The notes: generated by a model from the sequence alone, not told the origin. 64,000 nt of DNA from Acidobacteriota bacterium (GCA_965248695.1 CBDFKD010000002.1:2464001-2528000); one strand, 5' to 3'. Counted from the first letter of the stretch, positions 1,382-17,497 are shown. Numbers and translations: made by a program.

Positions 1382-1390
1382 TGCTAAACT
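1382..1390 (+). promoter_or_regulatory. Putative extended -10 (TGcTAAACT) facing the tRNA half; also 4173-4181 (TGcTACACT) and 9228-9236 (TGcTAAACT)
   Basis: TGnTAnnnT conserved in all three type I right arms ~72 nt upstream of the tRNA 5' end. Confidence 0.45.
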
Positions 1391-1462
1391 GCGGGCACAG
1401 TTTGGGCACAATCGGCCTCACAAGATCCACCGTGCCGCTCGTAAGTGCCCATGAACAAAGGG

Positions 1463-1501
1463 GCGCCCGTAGCTCAGCTGGATAGAGCAGCGGACTTCTA
1501 A
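1463..1501 (+). repeat. 5' half of tRNA-Arg(TCT), copy 1 (att-like core)
   Basis: gcgcccgtagctcagctggatagagcagcggacttctaa identical to 15082-15120; no 3' half follows. Confidence 0.95.
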
Positions 1502-1650
1502 ACCAAACGGTCGCAGTTGGGGCTGGTTGGCGCTGCTTGGGGCTCGTTGGCTGGCGCTGGTTCCTGTTGGTAGCGAATCAGCCCGCTCTTGGTTCTAGTT
1601 GGTTCCAGTTGGTGCTGCTTGGTTCCCCGCGGGCACAATCGTGGGCACAG
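1502..1650 (+). repeat. Type I left arm: 10-bp periodic TTGG tract plus GGGCACA pair
   Basis: TTGG at 1517,1527,1537,1547,(CTGG 1557),1567,1589,1599,1609,1619; GGGCACA at 1631 and 1643. Confidence 0.9.
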
Positions 1651-1696
1651 TTTGAACCGCTGAGTACGTGGAGGACTCCGCAACTCGCTGACGCGG

Positions 1697-1735
1697 CTAC
1701 GGATCCGTCGGCACGAGCCGCTTCAGCTCGTCGAA
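1697..1735 (-). pseudogene. 3'-terminal remnant of a kinase-propeller gene (FDELKRLVPTDP*)
   Basis: Resembles the NWFEELKRLVP-type C-terminus of this kinase family; homologous to 9532-9586 and 12759-12816. Confidence 0.7.
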
Positions 1736-1928
1736 GTGCCAGGGCAAGGGGTCAGGCGTTCCCGGATCCACGGCGGAGAGCGTCTGGGAGTTGTCCCGCA
1801 GCGAATCCCTTGAGGAGCCCAACGATCAGTGGTTGTATCCAGGCGTCCCTCTACTGACCAAGCCAAGAACCTAACTCGACCAGGGTCATCTTGGACATCC
1901 CGGGAGGTAGACAGTGGTTGGAGGATCG

Positions 1929-3722
1929 ATGACGGAAACCAGGCCCCAGCTGTGGATCCTTTTGCTGGCGAGCCTGAGCATATCGGCTTGTCAGTCGTCC
2001 ACGCAGGACGCGTCGCCAGGCGATGCTGCCAGCCCTGCCGATTTGGTGCTGCAGGGCGGAAAGTTCTTTACCGTCGACGAAGCCCAAGTTTGGGCTGAAG
2101 CCGTCGCCATCAAGGACGGCAGGTTCGTGTACGTCGGCGACAACACTAGCGTACAGGGCTTCGTTGGCCCCGATACCGTTCGCCATGACCTCGGCGGCAA
2201 GCTGACAATTCCCGGTCTAGTGGATTCCCATACACACCCAGGTAGGATGGGGCGGGGCGGGGGCGTCTCGGTCCCCGTGGGTGGTGGTCCCAGAGGGAGG
2301 CTGCCCAGCGGCGGGAACAAGGAGGAGATCTTCGCTGCGGTGGAGGCATATGCCGAAGCCAACCCGGACCTTGCCTGGATCGAGATGGGTAGCTGGTCCG
2401 GGGATCTGTACGGCATCGCGGGCCCACATAGGAGAGATTTGGATCGCGTGGTACCGGATCGACCGGTGATGTTAGGAAGCGTCCATAGCGTTTGGGTCAA
2501 TTCCGTGGCGCTCGAGATGATGGGGGTCGACAGCAATACACCCGATCCGGTACCCGGTCTCTCATTCTTCGTACGGGATGCCGATGGGGAGCCTACCGGC
2601 TGGATCAAGGAATTTGCCACCTGGCCCTATGCGCAGCACCTTGCTGACGTTGACCCGGAGTCCCACAAGGAGGGTATCGTCACCTTCTTGGAGTACCTGT
2701 CAGGCCACGGCGTTACTTCACTCTTGGACGCTGGTAACCAAAACTACGACGATCTCGCGTACTCGCTGCTGGCTGAGCTAGAGGCGGCCGGTCGTCTGCC
2801 GGTTCGCCTCGAGGGCAGCTATCACATCTACTTGCCCGATCGGGTGCCCGATGCAATCGATGAGCTACAGCGGCTGCGCCGCACCTACGGCGGCGAACGT
2901 CTACGGTTCAACACCATCAAGATCCACTTCGACGGCACCAATGAGATTCGTACCGGCGCGGTGCTCGAGCCGTACAGCGATGACCCGGGCAACCGGGGCA
3001 CGACCCTGCTCGACACCGGACAGCTGCGTGACTTCATCGTGCAGCTTCACGAAGCCAGGATCGATCTGCACATGCACATCGTGGGCGACCGGGGCGTACG
3101 CATCGCCCTGGATGCGGTGGAAGCAGCGCGCAGGTCGGTCGACGGCGAGCTCTATCCACGCGTCACCCTGTGCCACCTGGACATCATCGATACGGCTGAC
3201 TACCCGCGTTTCAAACAGCTGGGTGTCATTGCCAACTACACGCCCCAGTGGCACGGCCTGGGAGACCGACTGCCGTTGACCGCCGGTACCCTTGGCCCCC
3301 GCTTCGAAAGGATGTTGCTGGTGCAGCCGTTACTGGATGACGGCGCGGTCGTGACCTTCTCCAGCGACGTGACATCGCTCGGGGCCATGGAGCGGGCCAA
3401 CCCTTATCTGGGGATGCAGATCGGCCACAACCGCCAATACCATCAACAAGGTGAGGCGGCGCCGATAAGGCTGCCGATGACCGAACGCCTGGACCTGGAG
3501 GATCTAGTCAAGGGATATACGTTGAACGGCGCCTACCAGCTCCGCATGGACGACCAGCTCGGCTCCATCGAGGTAGGCAAGCTCGCCGACCTGGTCGTGC
3601 TCGATCGCAACCTGTTCGAAATCGATCGGTACGAGATCCACGAGGTTCGACCCGAAGCGGTCATCATGGAAGGCGAGATCATCAGGGGGAGCTTAGACAG
3701 CGGCGCGGAGCTGAGGCCATAG
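1929..3722 (+). CDS. Amidohydrolase_3 (YtcJ-like) lipoprotein
   Basis: PGLVDSHTH, HIVGDRG, FSSD, GSIEVGKLADLVVLD; lipobox ISAC; GGAGGA before ATG 1929. Confidence 0.9.
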   Translation: MTETRPQLWILLLASLSISACQSSTQDASPGDAASPADLVLQGGKFFTVDEAQVWAEAVAIKDGRFVYVGDNTSVQGFVGPDTVRHDLGGKLTIPGLVDSHTHPGRMGRGGGVSVPVGGGPRGRLPSGGNKEEIFAAVEAYAEANPDLAWIEMGSWSGDLYGIAGPHRRDLDRVVPDRPVMLGSVHSVWVNSVALEMMGVDSNTPDPVPGLSFFVRDADGEPTGWIKEFATWPYAQHLADVDPESHKEGIVTFLEYLSGHGVTSLLDAGNQNYDDLAYSLLAELEAAGRLPVRLEGSYHIYLPDRVPDAIDELQRLRRTYGGERLRFNTIKIHFDGTNEIRTGAVLEPYSDDPGNRGTTLLDTGQLRDFIVQLHEARIDLHMHIVGDRGVRIALDAVEAARRSVDGELYPRVTLCHLDIIDTADYPRFKQLGVIANYTPQWHGLGDRLPLTAGTLGPRFERMLLVQPLLDDGAVVTFSSDVTSLGAMERANPYLGMQIGHNRQYHQQGEAAPIRLPMTERLDLEDLVKGYTLNGAYQLRMDDQLGSIEVGKLADLVVLDRNLFEIDRYEIHEVRPEAVIMEGEIIRGSLDSGAELRP

Positions 3723-3756
3723 CGGCAGCTGCGGCTTCGTGCGCACCTCGGCAGAT

Positions 3757-3857
3757 GGCGGCTTCGATGCAAGCACGGGACATCGAGGCCATCACAGTGA
3801 ACCGCTTGCCGCACGGCTACGCTGGCGGCGCCAACCGCCTTTACGACCCCGCGTGGG
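3757..3857 (+). pseudogene. Fragment of an SpdH-like flavoprotein gene
   Basis: GGFD..DIEAITVNRLPHGYA matches GGFDPARDIEAITVNRWPHGYA in 41387-43378. Confidence 0.75.
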
Positions 3858-3858
3858 A

Positions 3859-3927
3859 CTCTCCCATGCCGCCAACGCCGAGCTATCCGGTGATCTCGTA
3901 GGGGCCTAGTTTGGTGCCGGGTCCCAT
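3859..3927 (-). pseudogene. 5'-terminal remnant of a Ser/Thr kinase (MGPGTKLGPYEITG*LGVGGMGE)
   Basis: Colinear with the start of the kinase at 1137; in-frame TAG at 3883-3885; ends after the Gly-rich loop. Confidence 0.85.
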
Positions 3928-4252
3928 GGCGCTACCAGAGGGAGGTAGGTGGGCGCGTGAAGCGTATCGTCAGCCCATGCGAAGGTCCACGGGGCGCGAA
4001 ATCACCCGCTATACGTCAGTCCACACATCGGGGATGCTCCGTCGGAGAGAGCATCGGACGTAACCAAGCGATGTTTCCTTTCCGCTATCCGAGGCGCGGA
4101 GAATCGGTTCTGCGCCTGTGAGCCGACGACGGTGCTAGCGCCATCGGTGTTTCCAGAGAGGCGCTGACTTCTTGCTACACTTCGGGCACAGTTTGGGCAC
4201 AATCACGGTCACAGAATCCACCCTGCGGCTCGTAAGTGCCCATGAATAAAGG

Positions 4253-4291
4253 GCGCCCGTAGCTCAGCTGGATAGAGCAGCGGACTTCTAA
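4253..4291 (+). repeat. 5' half of tRNA-Arg(TCT), copy 2
   Basis: Identical 39-mer. Confidence 0.95.
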
Positions 4292-4631
4292 ACCAAACGG
4301 TCGCAGTTGGTGCTGGTTGGCGCTGCTTGGTGCTCGTTGGCTGGCGTTGGTTCCTGTTGATAGCGAATCAGCCCGCTCTTGGTTCTAGTTGGCTCCAGTT
4401 GGTGCTCGTTGGTTCCCCGCGGGCACAATCGTGGGCACAGCGGCGGAGCACAGTGTCGTCTCTGGCAGGTCTAGGCGACATCTTGATCACGCGCGAATTC
4501 GGCGCACCTCCGCCGAGAACGCGCACGCCCAGCCCATCGCCAGGCCAATCGGGCGAAGCTCAGGACAATGAGACCTCCGCCGAAGCAGCGTGCGCCGGGC
4601 GCCTGATTCGCGTACGTAGTCGCACCACCGC

Positions 4632-6656
4632 TCACCGCAGTGCAAGCGCGACGAACTCAGCGGCGTGCTCGACGCCGCCGACCGCGACGACTATGAACTG
4701 TTTCTCCTCGTGCATGTACGTGATCGGCGCACCGGTAGTGCCAGCGGGGAGCGCCGTCTCCCACAGAATGTCGCCAGTCTCCTTGTCGTAGGCGCGGAAC
4801 TTGTCGCCGCCGGACGTCGGAATCGCATACAGGGGCATCCCCTCCGGGACGCGCCTGGCCCAGTTGTGGTGCGACATCACCGGGTCGCCCTCGCCGACGA
4901 ACAGGAGCGTCTTCGTCAGCAACGGCGCTGCGCGCCCCGGCAGCCCGAGCCTCGGCAGGTTCAGGTGAGCGATCGCGGGATGGTCCCGCGGTCCCTCGCC
5001 GTTGGGGACCATCCAATCGATCTCGCCCTGGTTCATGTCATATGCGGTGATCCGCCCGTATGGCGGCTTGATGAGCGGCAGCCCTTGCGGACCATTGATG
5101 TAGCGTCGCGCGCCGCGAACGTAGCGCAGGTCCGCTGTGTCCGGGGGGCCTGCGAGGATGTCCGCGGCGAATGGTCCGGTTATGGACTGGACGTACAGGC
5201 GACCGGTGTCGGGGTCGAAGGCGGCGCTCTGCCAGTCGCCGCCTCCCTGTCCGCCCGGAAGCTGGATCGTGCCGAGGGTGCTGTTCGGGTCGTCGCTGCG
5301 AATCGAGGGCGGCGTGAACATCGGCCCGATGACGTAGCGATTCACGATCCGCTCTGCCTTCGCACGCAGCTCGGGCGTGAAGTCGATCAGATCGTCAATC
5401 GACACCCCCTGGCGGTCGAACGGCGGTGGCTTGGTCGGAAACGGCTGGGTCGGCGCGGTGCGTTCGCCCGGCGTGTTCGATTTCGGTACCGGGCGCTCTT
5501 CGATGGGCCAGATCGATTCTCCGGTCACCCTGTCGAACACGAACAGGAACGCGTTCTTGGTGACCTGGATGGCTGTCTTGCGACGCCGTCCGTCCACCGT
5601 GAGGTCGGCCAATATGGGCGCCGACGGCAGATCGAAGTTCCATAGAGGATGATGGACGGTCTGGAAATGCCAGATGCGCTCACCGGTCTCCGCGTCCACG
5701 CATACCAAGCTCTGGCCGTAGAGATTGTCCCCGAGACGATGGCCGCCGTACATGTCGTTGGTCGGCGAGCTGAGCGGCAGGTACACGTACCCCAACTCTT
5801 CGTCGACCGACATGTATGCCCAGAGGTTAGTGTGGCCGCTGTAACGCCAGCTCTCGTCCTCCCAGGTGTCGGTGCCGAACTCGCCGGCCTGCGGAACCAC
5901 ATGGAACGTCCAGCGCAGCGCGCCCGTCCGCACGTCGAACGCCCGCACGTCGCCGCGAGGTTGCGCCATGGTCGGGGGGCCGTCCGACATCGATTGACCC
6001 ACGATGACGACCTCCCCTGTGACCAGCGGAACGCCGGTCCACCAGTACGGTGAGCGCGGCGGGCCAAGGCCCTCGGCCAGATCGACCATGCCGGCATTGC
6101 CGAAGTCCGGATACACACGACCGGTCTTGGCATTGAGGGCGATCAAATGCTCGCCCCCGACGGCGAGAATGCGCGCATCCACGCCGTCGGTCCAATAGGC
6201 GACGCCGCGGGCGCTGTCTCCCCGTGATTGCCGTGGATCCTCCCCTGTGTCCTGCAGCCAGATGGTTCGTCCGCTCCCGGGGTCGAACGCCTCGACCAAC
6301 CCCACGCCGTTCGACGCGTACAGGACACCGTCGACCATCAACGGCGTCGATCTGAAGTTGTTGGAGAACTGCAAGCCGGGGTTCGCGTCGATGATCGCGG
6401 TGGCGACGGCCGGGCGCCGCCAGACGATGCGCAAACGGTCGACGTTGTCCCTGTCGATCTGGTCGAGCGGTGCGTACTTCGTACTGGCGGGGTCGCCGTT
6501 GTAGCTCCGCCACTCGCCGGCGGCCGCGCCTGTCTGGGCCGCGCCTGACACCCCGATGGCGCCCAGCAGACAAGCACACGCGGTCGACAGCGCCCGTCGT
6601 TTACCGAACCGTTTGCGATCCCGCGAACACGAAGCTCCCATCCGCATACCCCTCAC
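4632..6656 (-). CDS. PQQ-dependent glucose/quinate dehydrogenase-like propeller protein
   Basis: KYAPLDQIDRDNV, WHFQTVHHPLWNFDLP, KPPYGRITAYD, GAPITYM; signal peptide; exact start uncertain. Confidence 0.85.
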   Translation of the reverse strand: MRGMRMGASCSRDRKRFGKRRALSTACACLLGAIGVSGAAQTGAAAGEWRSYNGDPASTKYAPLDQIDRDNVDRLRIVWRRPAVATAIIDANPGLQFSNNFRSTPLMVDGVLYASNGVGLVEAFDPGSGRTIWLQDTGEDPRQSRGDSARGVAYWTDGVDARILAVGGEHLIALNAKTGRVYPDFGNAGMVDLAEGLGPPRSPYWWTGVPLVTGEVVIVGQSMSDGPPTMAQPRGDVRAFDVRTGALRWTFHVVPQAGEFGTDTWEDESWRYSGHTNLWAYMSVDEELGYVYLPLSSPTNDMYGGHRLGDNLYGQSLVCVDAETGERIWHFQTVHHPLWNFDLPSAPILADLTVDGRRRKTAIQVTKNAFLFVFDRVTGESIWPIEERPVPKSNTPGERTAPTQPFPTKPPPFDRQGVSIDDLIDFTPELRAKAERIVNRYVIGPMFTPPSIRSDDPNSTLGTIQLPGGQGGGDWQSAAFDPDTGRLYVQSITGPFAADILAGPPDTADLRYVRGARRYINGPQGLPLIKPPYGRITAYDMNQGEIDWMVPNGEGPRDHPAIAHLNLPRLGLPGRAAPLLTKTLLFVGEGDPVMSHHNWARRVPEGMPLYAIPTSGGDKFRAYDKETGDILWETALPAGTTGAPITYMHEEKQFIVVAVGGVEHAAEFVALALR

Positions 6657-6662
6657 GGTTGC

Positions 6663-8930
6663 CTAGTCCTCCGCCACGGCGACGACGTGGTGTCGCGTTC
6701 GAAAGATCAACATGTCGTCCACGGCCGCCGGGGTAGCCATGATGATCTCGCCCATCGCGTTGACGGCCAAGCGCTCGAACTCCCTGCCGGCCTGAATCAC
6801 GACTACGTCGCCGTCCTCGCTCGAGAAGTACAGGCGGCCGTCGGCCGCTATCGGCGACGCCGAGTAGTGGCTGCCGCGGCTGAGGCGGGCCTGGTAGAGA
6901 CGGCTCCCGGTGGCGGCATCGTAGGCGGCGAGGATGCCGGTGTCCGAGCTCACATACAGGACGTCCCCGTAGAGAATCGGGGTCGGAATGAACGCACCAC
7001 CACGGTGGGTGCTCCACGCCACGTAGTCGTTCGAGACCGCGTCATCCGTCGGGGTGATGTCGCCGCCCCCACCGGGGCGGACGGCGTAGATCGGCTGCAC
7101 GCTACCGCCGCTGCCGCTCGTCAAGTAGATCAATCCGTGGCCGCTGATCGGTGCCGGAATGGCGTAGATCGAGTGCTTGGCCAGCCTCCATAGCTCCTCT
7201 CCGGTCTGCGGGTCGTAGCCGCGCGCGAAGTTCGGGGCCAGGGTGACGAGCTCGGTGCGTGGTGGACCCTCGTAGATCAACGGTGTCGCCCACGAAGGCG
7301 CCTCGTCGCGGGCGGTGCGCCAGACTTCGGCGCCGGTCTCGATATCGAACGCGGCGATGAACGAGTCGGCGAGCAGGTCCACCTGCAGAATCACGAGCCG
7401 ATCGTGAATGATTGGCGAGGCAGCCGTGCCCCACTCATAACTCGGATCTACGACATACCCCGACCCGAGCGTACCGAGGTCGCGCGACCACAGCAGGGTC
7501 CCCGCGGTGTCGTAGCAGTAGAGCCCCTCCGAGCCGAACCAAACCACGACGTGCGTCCCGTCGGTCACCGGCGTGGCATTGGCCTGAGACTGGCTCACGT
7601 GGCGCGCCGTCCGCGGGATCCCTTCGCGGGCCTCGCGTTCCCAGAGGACCTCGCCGCTCTCCCGATCGAGCGCATAGACACGCCAAGAGTGTGGCTCCCG
7701 ATCTGTCGTCGACCGGTTGTCGGCGTCGAGGAAGGAGTAGGCGTCAAAGCCATGACGAAAGGCCGTCGGGTCGTCGGTCAGGGCTACCGCTGTCGTCACG
7801 AAGATACGGCTGTCCCAGACGATCGGACTCGAATGACCTAGCCCCGGGATCGAAGTCTTCCAAGCGACGTTGATCGAGCCTTCGAGGTCCCAGGTCGTTG
7901 GCGGTACGGCGTCGAGAGCAACCCCAGAGCCCCGGACACCCCGGAACGATGGCCAGCGCGCCCCGGTTGCGGCCACCGGGGCGGCGACCGGGCGATCAAA
8001 CGCCGGCTGTAGTGTTCGTGCCGGCTTCGCTCTCGGCACCGGATCGGCGGTCCGCACGAACACCTCCGTGATGCCCTCTTCCCGGAGGCTTATCTTGCGC
8101 GGCGTCGGCAACCCGACCGGTCTGCTGACGAGCTTGGTGCGGTCGAACGATTTGAAGCTCAGCAGGTCGAGCGGCAGTAAGCCGACGCTCGGCTGTCCGG
8201 CCCGCTCGAGCAGCAGCTGGTCCGAATGGACGCTCGGCGCCAGGGTCAGCGAGCTCCCGGCGGCGTTTCGATAGATCCCCACCCAGAGGTCGCGCCGTTC
8301 CGCCGACGACAGACGATCGATCGGTCGAGGCTCGATCGCGCCCGCGGCCCGCAACGTTTCGGCGAGATCCGCCAGATCGTAGCTAACCGCGGCCTCGTAG
8401 GCGACGTTGAGTAACGACGGGTCGACCCCGCCCCTGGCGACGATCCTCTTCACCACGTCGAACCGGCCACTCCATATCAGATCCAGAAGTGACTCGCCGG
8501 CCGCGCCGGCACCCGCCTCGAGAAGCAGCTCGAGCATCGTTACCCGGGTCTCTTCTGCGGCTCCGGTACCTCCCATCCCGGCATGTCGCAACGGTGTCCG
8601 GCCCCACTCGAGATCCTTGGTGTCCGGATCGGCTCCGTTCTCGAGCAGCAACCGGACGATCTCGAGATGGCCTCGTTCGGCAGCAATATAGAGCGCCGTG
8701 GCGCCGCGGTCATTCGCAACCTCGACGTCCACACCATGGGCGAGCAGTGCGCCCACCGTGGCGGCATCGCCGTGGCCGGCCGCTTCTAGCAGGCGGTGAT
8801 CGCGGGACGGTGCCTGCAGCGTGGGGCCTGTGACGAGCACCGCGCAAAGTCCGGCACACAGAAACCACGCGTCAGATGCTGGCCCTTGCGCGTTCGCCAT
8901 CGGCCGCCGGACTGGGGAGAAGGTGCTCAT
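6663..8930 (-). CDS. Ankyrin-repeat plus PQQ/BamB-like beta-propeller protein
   Basis: GATALYIAAERGHLEIVRLLLENGADP; WPSFRG, IPGLGHSSPIVW, SASPIAADGRLYF; start inferred. Confidence 0.85.
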   Translation of the reverse strand: MSTFSPVRRPMANAQGPASDAWFLCAGLCAVLVTGPTLQAPSRDHRLLEAAGHGDAATVGALLAHGVDVEVANDRGATALYIAAERGHLEIVRLLLENGADPDTKDLEWGRTPLRHAGMGGTGAAEETRVTMLELLLEAGAGAAGESLLDLIWSGRFDVVKRIVARGGVDPSLLNVAYEAAVSYDLADLAETLRAAGAIEPRPIDRLSSAERRDLWVGIYRNAAGSSLTLAPSVHSDQLLLERAGQPSVGLLPLDLLSFKSFDRTKLVSRPVGLPTPRKISLREEGITEVFVRTADPVPRAKPARTLQPAFDRPVAAPVAATGARWPSFRGVRGSGVALDAVPPTTWDLEGSINVAWKTSIPGLGHSSPIVWDSRIFVTTAVALTDDPTAFRHGFDAYSFLDADNRSTTDREPHSWRVYALDRESGEVLWEREAREGIPRTARHVSQSQANATPVTDGTHVVVWFGSEGLYCYDTAGTLLWSRDLGTLGSGYVVDPSYEWGTAASPIIHDRLVILQVDLLADSFIAAFDIETGAEVWRTARDEAPSWATPLIYEGPPRTELVTLAPNFARGYDPQTGEELWRLAKHSIYAIPAPISGHGLIYLTSGSGGSVQPIYAVRPGGGGDITPTDDAVSNDYVAWSTHRGGAFIPTPILYGDVLYVSSDTGILAAYDAATGSRLYQARLSRGSHYSASPIAADGRLYFSSEDGDVVVIQAGREFERLAVNAMGEIIMATPAAVDDMLIFRTRHHVVAVAED

Positions 8931-9117
8931 GGCCTCAATAGTTCGTCTGATTAAGGACCTCGTCTGGCAGGGGCCCTCATGGCGCGGTGCCAACGTATGG
9001 GCCCGCGGCGATAGCCTAGCGCCGCTGCGGACAGGGTCCAAGAGCCACAACGGTGTGCGGCATGGACGCCTGTCTCGAGCCGCTGGGCTGGCGGTCATCC
9101 GAGGCAAGCCCGACGCC

Positions 9118-9150
9118 GCGTTCCAGGAGCGGCAGATCAGCAACTACGAC
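9118..9150 (+). pseudogene. Short remnant of an M24/DoeA-like hydrolase gene (AFQERQISNYD)
   Basis: 31/33 nt match to 52058-52090. Confidence 0.6.
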
Positions 9151-9308
9151 TATCGCCGTGATCTCCTTGATCCACGTCAGTCGTTACGAACGGCAGCTCC
9201 GCTGGCCGTCGGACCGAGGCGACTTGTTGCTAAACTGCGGGCACAGCTCGGGCACAATCGGCCTCACAAAATCCACCGTGCGGCCCGTAAGTGCCCATGA
9301 ACAAAGGG

Positions 9309-9347
9309 GCGCCCGTAGCTCAGCTGGATAGAGCAGCGGACTTCTAA
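9309..9347 (+). repeat. 5' half of tRNA-Arg(TCT), copy 3 (type I / type II junction)
   Basis: Identical 39-mer. Confidence 0.95.
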
Positions 9348-9485
9348 GTCACTTCACTCGACTGGGCGGGGCTTGTTTCTACTTGTATCTAGTTGCATCC
9401 AATCGACTTGTGCCCGAACCGAAGTGACTGCGAGTTGTATGTTCTTGTATCTAGTTGGACGTAAATTGGCAGGAATTTGGCAAGG
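9348..9485 (+). repeat. Type II left arm: 10-bp periodic TTG tract plus TTGGCA pair
   Basis: TTG at 9373,9383,9393 and 9435,9445,9455; TTGGCA at 9466 and 9477. Confidence 0.85.
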
Positions 9486-9531
9486 TCTGAGCTGAGTACG
9501 TAGCGTGGCTCGCGAGACTCCGCTGACGCCG

Positions 9532-9586
9532 CTACGGGTCCGTCGGCACGAGCCGCTGCTCGTCGAACCAGGTGGTGGCGAGGTTG
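9532..9586 (-). pseudogene. Kinase 3' remnant (NLATTWFDEQRLVPTDP*)
   Basis: Homologous to 1697-1735 and 12759-12816. Confidence 0.7.
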
Positions 9587-9607
9587 TGGTCCAGGGCACC
9601 CGCCCGC

Positions 9608-12265
9608 CTAGCCCACGTCCTTGCCGAGCACGACGAGCTTCTTGAGCAGCACCGCGCCTTTGACGTTCCACACCTGTATCTCTGGCGGAGCATCGAACTT
9701 ACGCCCCATCAGGGCAAGGTCTTTGCGTCCCTTGCGTGCGAAGACGATTCCGGCGGCGCCGATCTGCGCGTAGCTGCCGTCGAAGACCTGAACGCGTGAA
9801 CCGGAGGCCTTGCCGTCGCGGCCGAACATCTGGAACCCGACATTGCCGTCGCCCAGGTGGCGCGTGACGACCACGATCTCATCGCCGTTGTCGGCGTTGC
9901 CGTCGAACTCTTGGGGGAACGCGCCGAGCACCTCGTACTCCTTGCCGGCGACCGTGCCGCCTCCCACCCGCTTGGCCTTCTTGCGGCTCGGATCCCACAC
10001 CTCGAAGGCCGCATCGCCGTTAGGCCGCGTGAACCCGACTACCACCAGGCGGCGTACCGCCCCCTTCGGCCCCGGCCGCGACCGAATCGTTCCCCAGCCG
10101 AGCACCGGATCGGCGGCAATGGCACCGCTCTTGGAAAGCTGATTCCCGTTCGCCGCCAGCACCTTGAAGAACGCCCTTGATCTTGTCTTGCGGTACCCGA
10201 CCAGGAGCTCACCGCCGGGCCGGGCAGAATCGAAGTCGCCGACCGTCCACAAGGCCTCGTCGAAGCCCGCGCTGAGGACCTTCTTGTTGAGCAGCGTCTT
10301 GCCGCTGCGCGGATCGACGATGAGCAACGTCGACCCCCTGCCGTTGCCACCGCTGTATGCGGCAACCACCTCGTCGGATCCGTCGTTATCGGTGTCTAAC
10401 CGGAGCCATTGGTGAAACGCCGACTTGGCCCCAATCACGGCGTGATCGGCCAGCTTCTGCAGCTTCTTGCCGCTCGCCGACGTGCCCCAGACGGTGAGAT
10501 GTCCGGTGCCCTTCTTGGCGGTGGTGGCGATCCCGATCTCGTCGCCTCGCGTGCCGTCGTATCTGAGCGCGAACAGCTGGCTGCGCAAGGTGCCTGCCGC
10601 CCCCACCGTCTTGCGATCGCGCAGCGCACCCTTGTCGCTGCGCAACTGCAGCTCTCTCACACCGGTGTCGAGGCCGCCGAGGAACAGCACCTCGGCCTTG
10701 CCTTTGCCGTCGGTGTCTACAGTGGTTGTGTACATGGCAGTGAACTTCTTCCCGGCGAAGAAGTTCCACACTCGCTTGCCTTTGTCGTTGTAGGCCTGGC
10801 TCCAGGCACCCCGAGCCGAGCCGCGGAACTCGATACTGTTGGCGCCAAGAGTCTGGAGGTCGTCGCCGACGAGGTTCCGTGTTCTTCCGGGCAGGTGCGC
10901 CGACGCTCCCGAGACTCCGGGACGAGCGCCGTTGGCAAGCCCCCGCGACGCGAACGCCACCCGCGAACAAGGGAATGCCGGGCGTGGGGGTGGGAGTAGA
11001 CCGATGCCGAGGACGCTGCCGCTGCCCGCCGCGCCTGAGTCGACAATGCCGCGGGAGAACGGGTCTACTTCGAACGTGCGGGCGGCCCTCGACAGGAAGA
11101 AATGGACGAACTGTATCGATCTCCGCACCCGTGCCGACGCGCACCCATCGTGATACTGAAAGACCGAGCGGGATTGACCGTTGATCGAGATTCCACCCTG
11201 CAAATTGTCCCCGAGATTATGATCGAGAGCGAAGCCCACGATGCCACCCTGTTGGTTCAGCGTGTTCTCGATGATTTTGATCCTCGGGTCGCTCGCCACC
11301 ACGATCCAGGGGTCGGGGGCGGCGCCGGTGACGGTGACGGTCAATTCGCGTTCGCAACCCTCAGTATCACAGAATGTCGGCGTCGACGGGGAGATCGTGA
11401 AGCTCACGTCACCTCCACCACCGCCGCCGCCACCGCCGCCGTCGTCGTCTTCGATGGTGCCGACTCCCTGCCCGTCGCCGATCGTCGGTTTCGCCGATCG
11501 AGCGATGTTGGACAAGTTCACGAAGAAGGTCTCGTCGCCCTCGTCGTCCGAGTCACCGTTCACTGAGACGTTGAACGTCTTGGTCTCGCCGGCGTTGCCG
11601 TTGAAGCTCAGCGTGCTGGTCTTGGCGGTGTAGTCGCTGCCGGCCGTGGCGCTGCCGTCGGCTGTCGCGGCCTGGACGGTGAAAGCGTCCGAGGCGGCCG
11701 ACAGCGTCACCGTGAAGCTGAAGTTCTTGCTGCCGCTGTCGCCCTCAACCGCCGTGACGTCGTTGATCGACACCGTCGCGTTGCCACCGCCCCCACCGGT
11801 GTCGCCGTCGGGGGTGATGGTGACCGTCGCCGTGTCGTCGCCGATCGTCACATCTGCAGCGCCGGCTCCCCCCACGCCGGTGATCTTCACGGTGAAGGTC
11901 TCGTTGCCCTCCACCTCCGTGTCGTCATGGATCTCGATGTTGAAGATTTTGGTTTGCGGCAGTCCCGTACCGGTCAGCGTCGTCGTTCGCCCAGTGTAGT
12001 CAGCGCCGTCCGTGGCAGTGTCGCCTGGCCCCGTGAATGCGGTAATGGTGAATTCGAAGTTGGGGGCGTTGCCGGTGAACGTCACGGGTACCAGGACCTG
12101 TGTGTCGCCCTCAACGACCGAGGTGTCGCCGACCGACAGCGTGCCGGGTAACTTGCCGCTCGCGGTCGGGCCAGCGGCGGCGATCTGCGGGGCGGAGATC
12201 AGCAGGATCGCCGCCAGCGCCAGCGCCGGGGATTTCAAACTCAATCCGAGATACTTGCGCATCAT
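9608..12265 (-). CDS. Secreted Calx-beta x2 / BACON-like / Lys-rich FG-GAP-like repeat surface protein
   Basis: Signal peptide; DDTEVEGNETF and GDSDDEGDETF Calx-beta motifs; poly-Gly linkers; DxDxxGxxE repeats; AAAGGA upstream. Confidence 0.8.
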   Translation of the reverse strand: MMRKYLGLSLKSPALALAAILLISAPQIAAAGPTASGKLPGTLSVGDTSVVEGDTQVLVPVTFTGNAPNFEFTITAFTGPGDTATDGADYTGRTTTLTGTGLPQTKIFNIEIHDDTEVEGNETFTVKITGVGGAGAADVTIGDDTATVTITPDGDTGGGGGNATVSINDVTAVEGDSGSKNFSFTVTLSAASDAFTVQAATADGSATAGSDYTAKTSTLSFNGNAGETKTFNVSVNGDSDDEGDETFFVNLSNIARSAKPTIGDGQGVGTIEDDDGGGGGGGGGGDVSFTISPSTPTFCDTEGCERELTVTVTGAAPDPWIVVASDPRIKIIENTLNQQGGIVGFALDHNLGDNLQGGISINGQSRSVFQYHDGCASARVRRSIQFVHFFLSRAARTFEVDPFSRGIVDSGAAGSGSVLGIGLLPPPRPAFPCSRVAFASRGLANGARPGVSGASAHLPGRTRNLVGDDLQTLGANSIEFRGSARGAWSQAYNDKGKRVWNFFAGKKFTAMYTTTVDTDGKGKAEVLFLGGLDTGVRELQLRSDKGALRDRKTVGAAGTLRSQLFALRYDGTRGDEIGIATTAKKGTGHLTVWGTSASGKKLQKLADHAVIGAKSAFHQWLRLDTDNDGSDEVVAAYSGGNGRGSTLLIVDPRSGKTLLNKKVLSAGFDEALWTVGDFDSARPGGELLVGYRKTRSRAFFKVLAANGNQLSKSGAIAADPVLGWGTIRSRPGPKGAVRRLVVVGFTRPNGDAAFEVWDPSRKKAKRVGGGTVAGKEYEVLGAFPQEFDGNADNGDEIVVVTRHLGDGNVGFQMFGRDGKASGSRVQVFDGSYAQIGAAGIVFARKGRKDLALMGRKFDAPPEIQVWNVKGAVLLKKLVVLGKDVG

Positions 12266-12536
12266 CCCCATCCTTTGAGGTCCCTGGCTACGGGACCCGT
12301 AGCCGATGCGGTCGCTTTCTAACGCGACGCCAGGCGAACCAGGACCCGTGACCATCCCACAAAACTGAACCCAGCGCGCGACCGCGCCCCCACCGTTGCG
12401 TTTCGCGTTCTTGGCACTCAGGCTGCCGGATATGATGAGCGTGCGGTTTGGCAGGGAATAGGCAAAGTCGCGTTAGGGCTCGATGGCGATCGGGTCGGCC
12501 TTGCCGTAAGTCATTGGTTCTATTGAACTTCTATGT

Positions 12537-12575
12537 GCGCCCGTAGCTCAGCTGGATAGAGCAGCGGACTTCTAA
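12537..12575 (+). repeat. 5' half of tRNA-Arg(TCT), copy 4
   Basis: Identical 39-mer. Confidence 0.95.
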
Positions 12576-12758
12576 GTCATTTCACTCGACTGTGCGCGTC
12601 TTGTTTCTACTTGTATCTAGTTGCATCCAGTCGACTTGTGCCCGAAGACGACTGACTCCCAGTTGTATGTACTTGTATCTAGTTGGACGTGAATTGGCAG
12701 GAATTTGGCAGGGCGGGCAGATCGAGGGTTGAGCTAGTTTTCGGGGTGCAGCCGGGCG

Positions 12759-12816
12759 CTACGGGTCCGTCGGTACGAGCCGCTTCAGCTCGTCGAACCA
12801 GTTGGTGACCAAGTTG
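12759..12816 (-). pseudogene. Kinase 3' remnant (NLVTNWFDELKRLVPTDP*)
   Basis: Best-preserved copy of the family C-terminal motif. Confidence 0.75.
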
Positions 12817-12837
12817 TCGTCCAGGTCACCCGCCCGC

Positions 12838-14865
12838 CTACTCCACGTCCTTGCTCAGCACCGCGATCTTCTTCAGCAACACGCCACCGTTGACGTTCCA
12901 GACCTGCACTTCTGGTTGGCTACCTACCTGGCGCGCCATCAGCGACAGGTCGACACGTCCCTTGCGCGCGAAGACGATCGGGCTGGCACTGGGGTTGATG
13001 TAGGTTCCGTCGAACACCTGCACCCGATCCCCGCGCTGCCTGCCGTCACGTCCGAACATCTGGAAGCCGATGTTGCCGTCGCCCACGTGGCGACTCACGA
13101 CGACGATCTCCCATCCGTTGTCGCCATCGCCGTCGAAGTCGAAGGCCGCGTCGCCGTTGGCACGGGTGAAGGCGACGACCACCAGGTCGCGGACGGTGCC
13201 CTTGGGGCCCGGCTTGGACTGGATCGCTCCCCATCCGTGCAGCGACTTGGCAGCGATGCTCTTGCTCGTCGAGAGTACTGCGCCGCTGGTCGCGAGCACC
13301 TTGAAGAACCCCTTGCTCTTCTTGCGGTACCCGACCAGGAGCTCGGCACCTGATCTGTCCGGATCGAAGTCGCCGGGCATCCACACGGCCTGGTCGAAAC
13401 CGGTCTTCAGGACGGTCTTGTTCACCAGCGTCTCGCCAGTCCGCGGATCGACAACGCGCAACGTCGCGCCTTTGCCGCTGGGAGCGCTGTAGCCTACGAC
13501 CATCTCGTGGCGGCCGTCGTCGTCGATGTCGAGCGGCATCCACTGATGGTTGGCCGACTTCGCCCCGACAACGGTGTGCTCGGCAAGCTTTCGCAGCTTC
13601 TTGCCTGACCGATCCCAGATCGCCAACTGGCCGGTGCCGTTCTTGGCCACATAAGCAATGCCGATCTCCTGACCCCGCTTGCCGTCGTGCTCTAGATTCA
13701 TCAGCCGTGCCGCTGTGGATCGGGCTGGAGTTACCGACTTCCGGTCCTGAAGTGCGCCGCTGGAGCTGCGCAGCTGGAGCTCTGTTGTGCCGGACCCCTG
13801 GTTACCGAGAACCACGGGCTCCGGCTTGCCGTTGCCTTCGGTGTCGATGCGCAGCAGTTGGAGGCCGGGAAACTTAGGGCCGGTGAACAGGTTCAGCGAC
13901 CGCTTGCCTCGACTGTTGTACTGCTGCACCCATGGGCCTCGCGCCGCGCCGCGATACTCCGGTGCGAGCACGTGGATCTCGTCGAGACCTTTGGCTCGGC
14001 GCGAGTCCGCGCGTCCGTCCGCGAAACCCCCGGCCGCCGGACTCGGCGGCTGGTTCTGCGATGAGTTGTTGCGGTTACTGGAATCGTTGTAATCGTCCTT
14101 GATGGACAGCCCGTAGAGAAACTGGTCATCGAGAGGGATTCCATCGATGTCACTGGCGATCGGAAAAAGAGTCCATGACGGGATACCACCGATCGAAGGT
14201 GTTGGAGCACTGCAAACGCAGGCTATTGCCACCTCTTCGGATATGGCCGAGGTCTGGGACACCGTATGCGTTTGGCTGCCGATGCGGACAGACGCAGACC
14301 GATTGAAACCGGTTTTGTTTGAGAAAACGCCGTAGAACAGACTGCCGTCGTCCTTTTCCTTCGCCGACTCAATCTGGATCCAGCTGTCGCTTGTTGAAGC
14401 GTTCCAGGTACCGGAGCCTCGGACCTTGATCTCAGAGCCTGAATACCCGTGCGCGGCAAAGCTGCGCGCCTGGTCGGAGATTTCGAGGCTGTCACCGCCG
14501 CCACCGTCGTCGTTTTGGATGGTGCCGACTCCCACCGGGAGGTTGTTGTTCGCCGGTATGTTCCCCGAGCCCTGGACGTTCGACAGCTGCACTTTGAAGG
14601 TCTCGTCGGGCTCGTCTTTGGTGTCGCCGAGCACGAGAACGGAGACGTTCTTCGTCTCGCCGGCATTGCCCGTGAAGTTGAGCGTTTGCTTGTTGATGGG
14701 CCCGTAGTCTTCGCCGCTGGTAGCGGTGCCGTTGGCGGTGGCAGCATCAACGCTGAACGAAGCGCTGGCAGTCGATAGCGTCACGGTGAAGTCGAAGGCC
14801 GTACCGTCGCCATCTCCGCCCTCTAGCTTGCTGACGTTGTTGATCGACAGCGTCGGGGTGTCGCC
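12838..14865 (-). pseudogene. 5'-truncated paralog of the cassette C surface protein
   Basis: Frame open but lacks start codon, signal peptide and first Calx-beta; joined directly to leader sequence near 14865; ~30-codon in-frame deletion near 13140. Confidence 0.7.
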
Positions 14866-15081
14866 GCGGTCGCTTTCTAACGCGAAGGACCCGTGACCAT
14901 CCCACAAAACTGAACCCAGCGCGCGACCGCGCCCCCACCGTTGCGTTTCGCGTTCTTGGCACTCAGGCTGCCGGATATGATGAGCGTGCGGTTTGGCAGG
15001 GAATAGGCAAAGTCGCGTTAGGGCTCGATGGCGATCGGGTCGGCCTTGCCGTAAGTCATTGGTTCTATTGAACTTCTATGT

Positions 15082-15155
15082 GCGCCCGTAGCTCAGCTGG
15101 ATAGAGCAGCGGACTTCTAATCCGCAGGTCGGAGGTTCGAATCCTCCCGGGCGCG
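15082..15155 (+). tRNA. tRNA-Arg(TCT), intact; CCA not fully encoded (CCT follows)
   Basis: Acceptor GCGCCCG/CGGGCGC, anticodon stem GCGGA/TCCGC, loop CTTCTAA, T arm GGAGG-TTCGAAT-CCTCC. Confidence 0.98.
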
Positions 15156-15212
15156 CCTTTGTGTTCACAACTTGCGAGGATTCAGGGCCGTCGAAGCCTC
15201 TCTGAACGATCC

Positions 15213-17483
15213 TCAGGGGTTGGTCGGCGGCGCCACGGCGACGACATGGTGCCGGGTGCGCAGGAACAATGTGTTGCCCGAGATCGCCGGCGTTGCCATC
15301 AGGCTCTCGTCCATCTGATTGACCGCCAGTCTCTCGAAGCTCGGCCCCGACTTGACGACGACCACCTCGCCATCCTCGCTGGAGAAATAGAGCCTGCCAT
15401 CTGCAGCCACCGGCGAGGCGGAGTAGGTGCCTCCACGGGTGAGCCGCGCGCGGTACACTCGCTCGCCCGTCTCCGCATCATAGGCGCTCAGCACACCGCT
15501 GACGCGTGAGCACACGTAGAGCAAGCCGCGGTAGACGATCGGCGTCGAGATGCCGGATCCGCCGATGCGCTTGGCCCAGGCAACGTGCTCGCTCGACGCT
15601 TCATCGTCGGCGAGCGTGATATCGCCCACCGCGCCGGGACGGATTGCGTAGATTGGCTCGACGGTGCCGTAGGCGCTGCTCAAATAGATCAGGCCGCGAC
15701 CGGCGATCGGGGTCGGTATCGTGAAATCGCTATGGAAGCCCAGCCTCCAGAGTTCCTCACCTGTCTCCGGGTCGTGGCCCCGGGCGAACCGCACTCCCGC
15801 GGTAACGAGCTCCGTGTGTCGGCCGCCCTCGTAGACCACGGGGGTAGCCCAAGAAGGATACTCGTCGCGCTCGCTACGCCAGACCTCCTTTCCCGTGGCG
15901 ATGTCCAAGGCCAGCAGGTAGGCGAACTTGCTGACGTCCACCTGGAGGATCACCAGGTTCTTGTGGATGATCGGCGAAGAGGCGGTGTTCCACTCATAGC
16001 CCGGATCGAAGTAACGCCCGGATGCCAGCGTGCCGAGGTCCCTCGCCCATAGTAGGTTGCCCTCCAGGTCGTAACAGTAGATGCCCTCGGAGCCGAACCA
16101 GACAAGTAGATGGGTGCCGTCCGTAGCAGGGGTTTGATTGGCGTGCGACGCGGTTACATGGCGGGCCGTTCTCGGTAAGCCCTGTCGCGCTGCCCGCTCC
16201 CAGAGGATGTCGCCGCTGTGCTTGTCGAGGGCGTACACCCGCCACGAGTGCGGAGCGTCTTCCTTGACGTAGGCCAGGACGCCTGAGTTCGCTGCCTCGG
16301 AGAAATCACGGAAGGTTGACACGGTCTCATCGGCCGGAACTGCCGTGGTCACGAACACGCGATCCCCCCAGACGATGGGGCTGGAGTGTCCGAGGCCCGG
16401 TATCGGCGTCCTCCAGGCGATGTTGATCGACTCTCGCACGTCCCAGGCGGTCGGCGGCGAGGCTCCGTCGGCGATGCCGGAGCCGTTCGGTCCCCGAAAC
16501 GAAGCCCACTCCCCAAGACCGGCGATCGCCGGTTCGGTGGTGATCGTATCGGCGGCGCGCGCCTCGACATCGACGGCGCGGAAGTCAACGCGGGCTGGCC
16601 TTGGCCGGATGGACACATCAGCCATCCGACGGAAGCGCTCGGATCGGTCGCCCTCATATAGAACCAGCTCGGTCGGTGGAAGCGTCCGACCTCTCAGGGC
16701 CACGAAGACCTTTCGCTCGCGGGACCGAAACAACATCTGATCGACGGGCACAAGCGCGACCCGCTTGCCGCCGCGGCGCTCGAGCATCAACTCGCCCTCT
16801 TCGAGGCCGGGCTCGAGCGTCAGCGCCTCCTGCGCCTGGCTGCGATAGATCCCCGCAATCCGAGCGAGCCGTTCCGCGGAGCGCACTTGATCGAGCGGAC
16901 CCGGCTCCTTGGCCCCCGCCTCGATCAACAGCTCGACCAACTCCGCTCGCTCGGCCCGCCTCGCCGCCGCCAGCGCCATGTTCACGTAGGAGGGGTTGGA
17001 ACCACCCCGGCCGACGATCGTTCGTACGGCCTCGAGGTAGCCGGCGCGGATCAGATCGACGAGTGGCGTTCCATCCCTTCCGCCTCCCTTCTCCACCAGC
17101 AACCGGATGATCTCCGCCCTCGCCTCCGGCGCCCGAACGTCCGTGTTCGATATGGCAGCGAGCATCAGCGGCGTCTTGCCCCACGGAGATCTGCCGCGCG
17201 AGGGGGGGCTGGAGTCGGGATCCGCCCCGTGCTCCAGCAACAGCCTCACGAGCTCGAGGTTGCCCCAGTCGGCGGCGGTATAGAGAGGTGTTACGCCGAA
17301 GCCGTTGTCGGCGTTTACATCGGCTCCCTCGGCAAGGAGCTCGCTCACCGCAGCGAGATCGCCGTCTGCCGCTGCGGTCACCAGTTGCTTGTTGAGGTCG
17401 TCCTGGCGTTGAGGCGATTGAGTGCCGAGCAGGAGGATCGACAGCCCGCAGATGTACGTCAGTCGGTGAGCTCGTGCACCCAC
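15213..17483 (-). CDS. Ankyrin-repeat plus PQQ/BamB-like propeller protein, paralog of 6663-8930
   Basis: GVTPLYTAADWGNLELVRLLLEHGADP; WASFRGP; IPGLGHSSPIVWG; GTG start inferred. Confidence 0.85.
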   Translation of the reverse strand: MGARAHRLTYICGLSILLLGTQSPQRQDDLNKQLVTAAADGDLAAVSELLAEGADVNADNGFGVTPLYTAADWGNLELVRLLLEHGADPDSSPPSRGRSPWGKTPLMLAAISNTDVRAPEARAEIIRLLVEKGGGRDGTPLVDLIRAGYLEAVRTIVGRGGSNPSYVNMALAAARRAERAELVELLIEAGAKEPGPLDQVRSAERLARIAGIYRSQAQEALTLEPGLEEGELMLERRGGKRVALVPVDQMLFRSRERKVFVALRGRTLPPTELVLYEGDRSERFRRMADVSIRPRPARVDFRAVDVEARAADTITTEPAIAGLGEWASFRGPNGSGIADGASPPTAWDVRESINIAWRTPIPGLGHSSPIVWGDRVFVTTAVPADETVSTFRDFSEAANSGVLAYVKEDAPHSWRVYALDKHSGDILWERAARQGLPRTARHVTASHANQTPATDGTHLLVWFGSEGIYCYDLEGNLLWARDLGTLASGRYFDPGYEWNTASSPIIHKNLVILQVDVSKFAYLLALDIATGKEVWRSERDEYPSWATPVVYEGGRHTELVTAGVRFARGHDPETGEELWRLGFHSDFTIPTPIAGRGLIYLSSAYGTVEPIYAIRPGAVGDITLADDEASSEHVAWAKRIGGSGISTPIVYRGLLYVCSRVSGVLSAYDAETGERVYRARLTRGGTYSASPVAADGRLYFSSEDGEVVVVKSGPSFERLAVNQMDESLMATPAISGNTLFLRTRHHVVAVAPPTNP

Positions 17484-17497
17484 GTCACTGGCGGCGC

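Follow-up and report, generated by a model that had tools for sequence, protein, structure and literature searches.

Serial integration at the single tRNA-Arg(TCT) gene as the probable origin of an array of integrase-less units in an Acidobacteriota genome

Integration at tRNA genes is textbook biology. In streptococci, tandem accretion occurs at ICE and IME sites, and streptococcal CIMEs, which are flanked by att sites and lack recombination and transfer genes, are thought to be moved only by the integrase of a neighbour; they derive from known conjugative elements, and usually one or two are found per site. The units of the array described here resemble CIMEs in having att-like flanks and neither recombination nor transfer genes; unlike CIMEs, they number seven and have no parent element in the genome. 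The islands at ssrA of Dehalococcoides carry integrases of their own. Several of them are stacked there by site-specific recombination (PMC3146451) and duplicate the 3′ end of the gene, whereas the array here repeats a 5′ half.

The reverse geometry is itself already known (PMC4383910, Table 1; PMC6563490), and tRNA islands with a 5′ tDNA fragment and a site in the anticodon loop were described by Zhao and Williams (2002, J Bacteriol 184:859), as far as PMC6563490 relates that work. This geometry is rare, with 5′ fragments at 159 of 3919 islands in the Islander collection, where tandems of three or more number only 4 among the 3919 (PMC4383910). As in such tDNA islands, the locus here has an intact tRNA gene with same-orientation end fragments upstream, a break in the anticodon loop, a restored gene and an integrase gene beside the attachment site, the last of these in congeners. 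Islander, however, requires an integrase in every island (PMC4383910), whereas none of the seven units here contains a tyrosine integrase. Because island finders make this demand, they discard long rows of small integrase-less units, which are hence little described; a non-exhaustive full-text search of the literature found no description of arrays of tRNA 5′ halves that lack integrases.

For the tycheposons of Prochlorococcus, a model has been proposed in which successive insertions at a tRNA gene drive older elements inward (bioRxiv 10.1101/2020.12.28.424599). There, partial tRNAs and degraded elements pile up and the cargo consists of niche genes, much as here, and tRNA-Arg(TCT) is one of seven targets. 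Compared with tycheposons, the array belongs to another integrase lineage and another phylum, and its units are small, uniformly integrase-less and bounded by two conserved arm types.

We analysed a 64,000-nt stretch (hereafter, the window) of a soil Acidobacteriota genome (GCA_965248695.1). Its sole tRNA gene, as called by ARAGORN, is tRNA-Arg(TCT), which is also the only gene of this type in the whole genome. The features of the array that lie in the window are listed below.

1–1236, minus strand: unit 3 cargo, Ser/Thr protein kinase (Pfam Pkinase, E 2.2e-54; ORF table)
1237–1462, plus strand: left arm type A of unit 3 (alignment), paired motif GGGCACAGTTTGGGCACAA at 1393–1411
1463–1501, plus strand: displaced 5′ half, fourth array copy (exact match)
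1502–1651, plus strand: right arm type A of unit 4, two clusters of TTGG motifs at 10-bp intervals followed by GGGCACAATCGTGGGCACAG at 1631–1650
1914–3722, plus strand: unit 4 cargo, amidohydrolase with lipoprotein-like N-terminus (Pfam Amidohydro_3, E 1.2e-69)
3723–4252, plus strand: unit 4 gene remnants (repeat families D5, D11 and D14; sequence comparison), then left arm type A of unit 4 (arm comparison), motif pair at 4184–4202
4253–4291, plus strand: displaced 5′ half, fifth array copy (exact match)
4292–4440, plus strand: right arm type A of unit 5, motif pair at 4421–4440
4632–6656, minus strand: unit 5 cargo, PQQ-dependent dehydrogenase (Pfam PQQ, E 3.4e-178)
6663–9143, minus strand: unit 5 cargo, ankyrin-repeat and PQQ_2 beta-propeller protein (Pfam)
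9144–9308, plus strand: left arm type A of unit 5 (alignment), motif pair at 9239–9257
9309–9347, plus strand: displaced 5′ half, sixth array copy (exact match), at a junction of left arm A then right arm B
9348–9607, plus strand: right arm type B of unit 6, TTGT/TTGC at +26/36/46/61 and +88/98
9608–12355, minus strand: unit 6 cargo, Calx-beta protein, 915-aa ORF (Pfam)
12341–12536, plus strand: left arm type B of unit 6 (repeat family D2)
12537–12575, plus strand: displaced 5′ half, seventh array copy (exact match)
12576–12837, plus strand: right arm type B of unit 7 (arm comparison)
12838–14907, minus strand: unit 7 cargo, Calx-beta ORF, 689 aa (Pfam)
14886–15081, plus strand: left arm type B of unit 7 (100% identity to 12341–12536)
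15082–15157, plus strand: intact tRNA-Arg(TCT), putative attachment site (ARAGORN; Rfam tRNA, 74.3 bits; the genome's only copy)

The initial annotation had claimed four exact 39-nt copies of the tRNA 5′ half upstream of one intact tRNA, all stopping at the end of the anticodon loop. We recovered the same copies with 0 mismatches (starts 1463, 4253, 9309 and 12537, and 15082 in the tRNA itself), and in all four displaced halves identity to the tRNA ends right after CTTCTAA; dinucleotide-preserving shuffles give 0.00 matches expected by chance, and the 3′ half, as opposed to the repeated 5′ half, occurs once. The units, put at about 2.75, 5.0, 3.2 and 2.5 kb, measure 2790, 5056, 3228 and 2545 nt from start to start of successive halves. 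The array is bigger than had been claimed, as three further exact halves lie to the left of the window (C2:2452044, 2458438 and 2462211). Genome-wide it thus consists of seven exact displaced halves and the intact tRNA over 27 kb, all seven being upstream of the tRNA and in the same direct orientation; a copy with 3 mismatches lies 57 kb further left. The block of identity, which begins at tRNA position 1, closes with the final base of the anticodon loop in 6 of the 7 displaced copies and is 3 nt longer in the leftmost one. This breakpoint falls at a recognised crossover sublocation of tDNA islands.

The non-coding gaps between the cargo ORFs are occupied by the conserved end arms that had been noted, which we found to be of two types, A and B, with 75–100% identity within a type. 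Left arms at copies 2–5 are 80–90% identical across 100 nt, and right arm B of unit 6 is 82% identical to the other B arm. Strict GGGCACA motif pairs occur six times in the genome, always inside the array, which rules out GGGCACA as a general promoter; in a scan of the phylum the pair, with its 2-nt spacing, was present in 15 of 401 genomes. The pair also lies between the integrase gene and the tRNA at three integrase-bearing loci (L078, L083 and L061), and is common to these and to the units; no parent with full A or B arms was found, nor was any integrase-bearing element with arms of either type anywhere searched. On either strand, arms of both types fold less well than shuffled sequences (z +1.3 to +1.9), and the arms are therefore not attC-like hairpins. 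In Rfam only the intact tRNA scored, and the arms matched no family. A viral origin was considered and rejected, since the arm motif is absent from viral_contigs. Because the gene upstream of the tRNA is divergent, left arm B of unit 7 would have to hold the promoter of the intact tRNA; a scan for the sigma-70 consensus gave no promoter site in either left arm type.

The initial annotation had described the units as free of integrase, transposase and replication genes, and indeed no cargo ORF matched a recombinase, transposase or replication family in Pfam. Its description of the cargo as exported held in part: signal-like N-termini, judged by eye rather than by a predictor, are present in the amidohydrolase, the PQQ dehydrogenase and the 915-aa Calx-beta protein, and not in the kinase or the 689-aa Calx-beta ORF. 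The start of the 915-aa ORF is likely to be an internal Met that precedes the signal-like stretch. The kinase ORF crosses the left end of the window and is 931 aa when complete (C2:2462441-2465236). The amidohydrolase of unit 4 matches a cassette in the congener G003 at 92.5% identity over 2359 nt, and the ankyrin/PQQ_2 protein of unit 5 is 53% identical to the product of the gene immediately to the right of the tRNA.

As the first reading of the locus had anticipated, the number and content of units vary among relatives, with breakpoints at the att site. Copies of the 5′ half (2 mismatches or fewer) number 8, 3, 3, 1 and 4 in the five genomes of the genus, and the cargo differs. The displaced copies in congeners G001–G004 (n=10) break at the end of the anticodon loop with one exception, on G003 contig C27, where identity is 3 nt longer. 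The breakpoints in this genome and its congeners support the suggested crossover in the anticodon loop with replacement of the 5′ half. Two orthologous junctions have left flanks with 90.5% and 95.5% identity between species, and the DNA that follows the half is unrelated once past a short arm-like stretch. A neutral-decay test at these two old junctions gave about 2.7 substitutions expected in the copies of this genome and 0 seen, a difference that is not significant (P ~0.07). Left and right arm types within one unit of the congeners are sometimes mismatched, and no unoccupied site was found in the genus.

The cognate tyrosine integrase family that had been postulated exists in congeners, where the gene stops upstream of the tRNA or a displaced half, at a distance of 30–140 nt. 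Its representative in G002, P0001, is a 363-aa tyrosine recombinase (PF00589, E 3e-14) with the R, HxxR, H and Y positions present, encoded by a gene that ends 30 nt before the intact tRNA. The 5′ half of that tRNA and the two displaced halves of G002 are one base apart, as expected if the element brought its own half. In the order, homologues abut the 5′ end of a tRNA gene on the same strand at 9 of 12 loci, and at 2 of the remaining 3 they abut a displaced Arg half, one of these two integrases being truncated. An integrase lies inside the island only in the congeners G002 and G005, the copy in G004 being truncated. No close named relative of P0001 was found in PDB or NCBIfam.

The search for such an integrase in the genome under study was negative: P0001 has no homologue (tblastn, E<=1e-3), and the L078 integrase has only a 28% match. 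There is no tyrosine recombinase in or near the array and no recombinase within 250 kb, the 13 PF00589 matches of the genome all being distant and none adjoining tRNA-Arg; the serine recombinases are likewise far away. An IS element was also considered as the mover, as an rve transposase lies near the arrays in five genomes; with about 44 full copies genome-wide, its nearness is attributable to chance.

The repeats, the arms, the variation between genomes, the breakpoints in the anticodon loop and the integrase family with its position beside tRNA genes lead us to read the array as the trace of successive site-specific integrations, each replacing the tRNA 5′ half, with a probability of roughly 0.75; the proposed accumulation at the tRNA is supported. 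A tyrosine integrase would recombine within the 7-nt anticodon loop of the sole tRNA-Arg(TCT), and the incoming DNA would supply a fresh 5′ half together with its upstream region. Each insertion would shift the older half leftwards and place the newcomer's right arm behind it, so that seven events, or fewer if several units entered at once, could leave seven displaced halves over 27 kb. The right arm, with its two clusters of 10-bp-phased direct repeats and its GGGCACA pair, may act as an attachment site, and the left arm of type A bears the pair too. The units themselves are integrase-less and carry ordinary accessory genes, and several units are eroded; the recombinase would come from the divergent family that stands directly beside tRNA genes in congeners. 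Since this genome does not encode the integrase, the array would be frozen now unless one arrives in trans. Comparison with an integron, as had been suggested, holds in that small gene units are ordered at one recombination site; it fails in that no resident integrase lies beside the primary site, neither intI nor attI adjoins the array, the arms are not attC-like and the cargo genes lie on both strands.

Mobilisation in trans is plausible, and one possible, still tentative, reading is that the units form a self-standing family of non-autonomous cassettes, for which an integrase from elsewhere, or from an element of another cell, acts in trans and the tRNA is the capture site. Right arm A is 86–89% identical between this genome and G020, a member of another family, in which it stands behind G020's own tRNA variant; coding matches on the same G020 contig reach 66–81%, below the arm. 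One arm type thus stands behind host-specific tRNA halves in two bacterial families, and the same arm types accompany at least six unrelated cargo sets. None of nine copies of left arm A (four in this genome, two in G002, one each in G001, G004 and L080) has an integrase or a remnant of one alongside. In P0001-type elements the integrase gene itself takes the place of the left arm, and left arm A is unlike that of the G002 integrase element. Right arms A and B also share near-identical 10-bp-phased offsets, although the repeated word differs (TTGG versus TTGT/TTGC). Against this reading stand the lack of a cognate integrase in the genome, the erosion of units 1, 4 and 7, and shared genes whose boundaries differ between genomes, with no cassette found to have moved as a whole unit. 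Nor was a circular or excision joint seen among the contigs of one sample, which break at the halves and are uninformative on circles and order. If the units are mobile in this way, type A and B units might be widespread, undescribed satellites moved by the integrases of elements that abut tRNA genes. Such a satellite could consist of a complete attachment site, made up of a tRNA promoter, a 5′ tRNA half and a long arm of 10-bp-phased repeats that bind the integrase, around 1–2 accessory genes, and single tRNA genes of soil bacteria could, on the same tentative footing, be open-ended gene-capture arrays that resemble integrons in their outcome and work by classical attP/attB recombination.

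Nearly as probable, in our estimate, is that the units are decayed leftovers of once autonomous islands, or passengers that accreted along with one, and are themselves immobile. Deletion derivatives or broken genes are evident in several units. The amidohydrolase of unit 1 is frameshifted, and this unit has no left arm; 3723–4252 of unit 4 holds the 3′ trailer of another gene and a 5′ piece of a kinase gene. The unit 7 Calx-beta ORF aligns with the unit 6 protein only from residue ~190 and, as it has neither the signal-like N-terminus nor the first domain, is probably truncated. Decay would also suit the truncated integrase at the leftmost half of G004 and the arrangement in G002, where an intact integrase element is proximal to the tRNA with integrase-less units behind. 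Random decay does not predict arms that are 75–100% alike when of one type and still reach 89% across families, and integrase remnants are present in none of the seven units.

Tandem duplication by unequal homologous crossing-over, with gene conversion of the 39 nt and no site-specific recombination, is very improbable. It could account for a 235-nt stretch that is 100% identical between units 6 and 7 and for the paralogous pairs in the array (two amidohydrolases, two PQQ dehydrogenases and two Calx-beta genes). Most cargo is unrelated, however, and the paralogues are 44–55% identical in protein (amidohydrolases 86%), against 75–100% for the arms; moreover, the edge of the repeat coincides with a known integrase crossover site, the integrase family occupies this site in congeners, and in another family the arm stands behind a different host tRNA variant. 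The 196-nt left arm B is 100% identical in units 6 and 7, which requires a recent conversion or homologous event beyond the integration model. An assembly artefact of collapsed or mis-joined repeats has a negligible probability. Short-read contigs from four runs of one sample span all 30 bins but end at every half, so that none bridges two units and the order of units rests on the assembly; the one long contig joint (3708 to 15082) is accounted for by the paralogous unit 1 junction left of the window. Every junction, however, has unique flanks, all unique segments have similar contig depth (7.5–14.4, run X4), and comparable arrays come from independent assemblies of at least six other genomes and from metagenome contigs.

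The locus ties a row of integrase-less units to an integrase family that includes closely related members next to tRNA genes in both orientations. Should the units be mobile in trans, tRNA genes in soil Acidobacteriota would serve, in parallel to integrons, as platforms for gene capture; if they are immobile, the locus would document, in well-preserved form, the growth and erosion of islands at a tRNA gene.

The genome has 59 tRNA genes and the window just one, tRNA-Arg(TCT) at 15082-15157 (ARAGORN; Rfam match of 74.3 bits), which has no second copy elsewhere in the genome. The 39 nt at its 5' end, up to and including the last anticodon-loop base (CTTCTAA), have exact copies at 1463, 4253, 9309 and 12537, with 0.00 matches expected by chance (shuffles); the 3' half occurs once. 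An exact-match search confirmed these coordinates and the unit sizes of the initial annotation, which had taken the four copies to be the array. They do belong to it, but its true extent is nearly twice as long: the whole-genome search (two contigs, 5.89 Mb) found three further exact halves left of the window, at C2:2452044, 2458438 and 2462211 (C2 coordinates are those of the contig, on which the window covers C2:2464001-2528000), and an additional half with 3 mismatches at C2:2394504. The full array comprises the tRNA gene and seven displaced halves, numbered 0 to 6 from left to right, over 27.1 kb. Its units, measured from the start of one half to the start of the next, carry the following cargo:

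Unit 1, from C2:2452044, 6394 nt: PQQ dehydrogenase, AMP-binding enzyme, enoyl-CoA hydratase, amidohydrolase
Unit 2, from C2:2458438, 3773 nt: ion channel, cytochrome-c/PQQ protein
Unit 3, from C2:2462211, 3252 nt: Ser/Thr kinase, 931 aa
Unit 4, from 1463, 2790 nt: amidohydrolase
Unit 5, from 4253, 5056 nt: PQQ dehydrogenase, ankyrin/PQQ_2 protein
Unit 6, from 9309, 3228 nt: Calx-beta protein
Unit 7, from 12537, 2545 nt: Calx-beta protein

None of the unit genes matched recombinase, transposase or replication families, and the intergenic gaps are occupied by the arms described below. Several units are damaged. The amidohydrolase gene of unit 1 is broken into two ORFs, and its 3' end directly adjoins the next half without a left arm, a junction common to the congener G001. 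Unit 4 retains 90 nt from the trailer of a gene found in full in another congener, G003, together with the 5' remnant of a kinase gene, and the ORF of unit 7, which has no signal-like start, can be aligned to the unit 6 protein from residue ~190 onward only.

The DNA flanking the array has features of its own. To the right of the tRNA, a gene at 15213-17720 (-) encodes an 835-aa protein with ankyrin repeats and a PQQ_2 beta-propeller, 53% identical to the product of the unit 5 gene at 6663-9143 (-); several further beta-propeller genes follow, including those at 18542-19852 and 19868-20941. On the left, a HigB/HigA-like toxin-antitoxin pair (C2:2451500-2452040) ends ~25 nt short of the leftmost exact half, so this DNA looks mobile too, and the island may extend back to the 3-mismatch half. 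Also left of the window, two identical rve-family IS transposase genes (342 aa) in inverted orientation, at C2:2442775-2443803 (-) and C2:2446221-2447249 (+) (2221-3249 of locus L001), enclose a 436-aa ORF. The genome holds some 44 full copies of this IS, and its protein is 86-99% identical in other genera and families, so the element is very active and recently spread.

Pairwise comparison sorted the 170 nt after each half (the right arm) into two classes. Type A follows copies 0-4 (pairwise identity 75-89%) and type B copies 5-6 (82% alike); identity between the two types, about 50-54%, is at background level. Of the left arms (100 nt before the half), those at copies 2-5 are type A, 80-90% alike, and those at copy 6 and the tRNA are type B; the left flanks of copies 0 and 1 belong to neither. 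Wherever a unit of this genome has both arms, their types match. The left B arms of units 6 and 7 are 100% identical over 196 nt, implying that homologous exchange or conversion took place recently.

In right arm A, TTGG words stand at offsets +16, 26, 36, 46, (56) and 66, then at +88, 98, 108 and 118; in right arm B, TTGT/TTGC words stand at +26, 36, 46 and 61, then at +88 and 98. Both types thus follow one plan, two clusters of direct repeats phased at 10 bp, but with different words. Right arm A closes with GGGCACAATCGTGGGCACAG, and left arm A contains GGGCACAGTTTGGGCACAA some 50-70 nt upstream of the half; all six occurrences of the strict paired arm motif in the 5.9-Mb genome fall within the array. 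As single strands, arms of both types fold worse than shuffles on either strand (z +1.3 to +1.9); they are not hairpin sites. Their arrangement resembles that of classical attP arms: in lambda-type attP, the arm-type sites are tandem direct repeats at 10-bp spacing. A separate ~45-nt element with a short hairpin, GCTACGGGTCCGTCGG.ACGAGCCGCTTCAGCTCGTCGAA, lies at 1696-1735, 9531-9570 and 12754-12800, within right arms or directly past the stop codons of minus-strand genes, and has many sites in this genome and its congeners (90-100% identity).

The array differs from genome to genome. The five genomes in the genus have 8, 3, 3, 1 and 4 halves with <=2 mismatches and differ in unit content, and such a half was found in 14 of 61 relatives searched. 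At two orthologous junctions, copy 0 against G003 and copy 1 against G001, the left flanks are 90.5% and 95.5% identical, respectively, over 400 nt, and the sequences right of the half are unrelated apart from a short arm-like stretch. Right arm A reaches further: in G020, which belongs to another family, and on two metagenome contigs (L073, L085), it follows a half with that lineage's own D-loop variant and is 86-89% identical to the arm studied here, with coding matches on the G020 contig at 66-81%; as a yardstick, rpoB identity within the genus is 89.8%. The same arm types are paired with unrelated cargo in G020, in the congener G002 and in G021, where three halves lie within 4.4 kb; right and left types are sometimes mismatched in congener units, and cargo genes shared between genomes do not keep the same boundaries.

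In a family-level relative (G007:C2:2770001-2800000; L030, L031), two full-length tRNA-Arg(TCT) genes lie 6.6 kb apart; the 3' halves of both are complete, and the second has a divergent 5' acceptor strand. On G003:C27 (L036; reverse strand, near 8039 of the reverse-complemented locus), TCC comes after the 5' half, then ~21 unrelated nt and the usual tRNA trailer, and no intact tRNA-Arg(TCT) was detected in the G003 stretches examined; the odd half could come from a disrupted gene or from an assembly fault. In the congener G004, a RelE/ParE-like toxin-antitoxin pair immediately follows the right arm of the unit nearest the tRNA (half at C15:1319885-1319923; L006).

All 13 PF00589 matches and both serine recombinases of the genome studied lie far from the array. 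In G002, a tyrosine recombinase, P0001 (363 aa; PF00589 E 3e-14; R, HxxR, H and Y positions present), has its stop 30 nt upstream of the intact tRNA, whose 5' half is one base off both displaced halves of that array, the footprint expected if the element supplied its own 5' half. This integrase-bearing unit (7.5 kb; L004 18880-19536, L005 1265-6142) also encodes Pycsar-effector-like, DUF3574 and IrrE/M78 peptidase proteins and two IS transposases, and looks like a small defence island. A truncated P0001 homologue (residues 184-363, 77% identical) immediately precedes the leftmost half of G004, and of two homologues in G005 one precedes a displaced half and the other the tRNA. Within the order, the integrase lies immediately upstream of a same-strand tRNA 5' end (Arg-TCT, SeC, Lys-CTT, Lys-TTT) in 9 of 12 P0001-homologous loci; in two others it adjoins a displaced Arg half, and the remaining locus lacks a tRNA. 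A wider survey, with one genome per species, gave 31 loci: an adjacent tRNA shares the integrase's strand (5' geometry) in 11 and lies opposite to it, in the usual 3' geometry, in 9; in 2 the tRNA is further away, and in 9 none was found downstream. tRNA-Leu(TAA) is used in both orientations, by family members 52-70% identical to the query (loci L040-L070), as would fit an integrase family crossing over in the symmetric anticodon stem-loop.

The exact 21-nt arm motif is present in 16 metagenome contigs, in four of which its five copies (two in L080) are at junctions of an Arg-TCT half with arm A. In L078 and L083, it lies 8 nt past the stop of an integrase 37-38% identical to P0001 and is followed by an apparent tRNA 3' end on the other strand, an arrangement repeated in L061. 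In one sub-branch of the family, the motif pair thus appears to be an integrase-proximal arm element; its spacing from the tRNA is similar in left arm A, which nevertheless has no neighbouring integrase. No closer homologue of the L078-type integrase was found in the genome studied or four other genomes with type A arms; the search gave only P0001-family members (35-49% identity).

The explanation that best fits these sequences is repeated site-specific integration at the anticodon loop, in which each event would replace the tRNA 5' half, followed by erosion. This supports part of the initial proposal, namely serial integration at the loop in reverse geometry. The same proposal held the integrase-less units to be themselves mobile, which is a plausible possibility. 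Arms conserved across families and modular cargo are consistent with such mobility, as are units free of integrase remnants, given that an integrase gene would fill the left-arm position in P0001-type elements. However, an integrase of the family is missing from this genome, no circles were seen (in contigs of one sample, which break at halves), no cassette transferred intact as a whole was found among the genomes compared, and the units are visibly decayed.

The Islander report (PMC4383910) counts 3' fragments in 3760 islands and 5' fragments in 159, with 125 tandems of two or more islands and only 4 of three or more; candidates without an integrase are rejected. A tycheposon preprint (bioRxiv 10.1101/2020.12.28.424599) describes serial tRNA integration and islands holding partial tRNAs and degraded integrases. 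Both the 5' geometry and stacking are therefore already known. What is new is a long row whose units all lack an integrase and share two conserved arm types, along with an integrase family working in either orientation.
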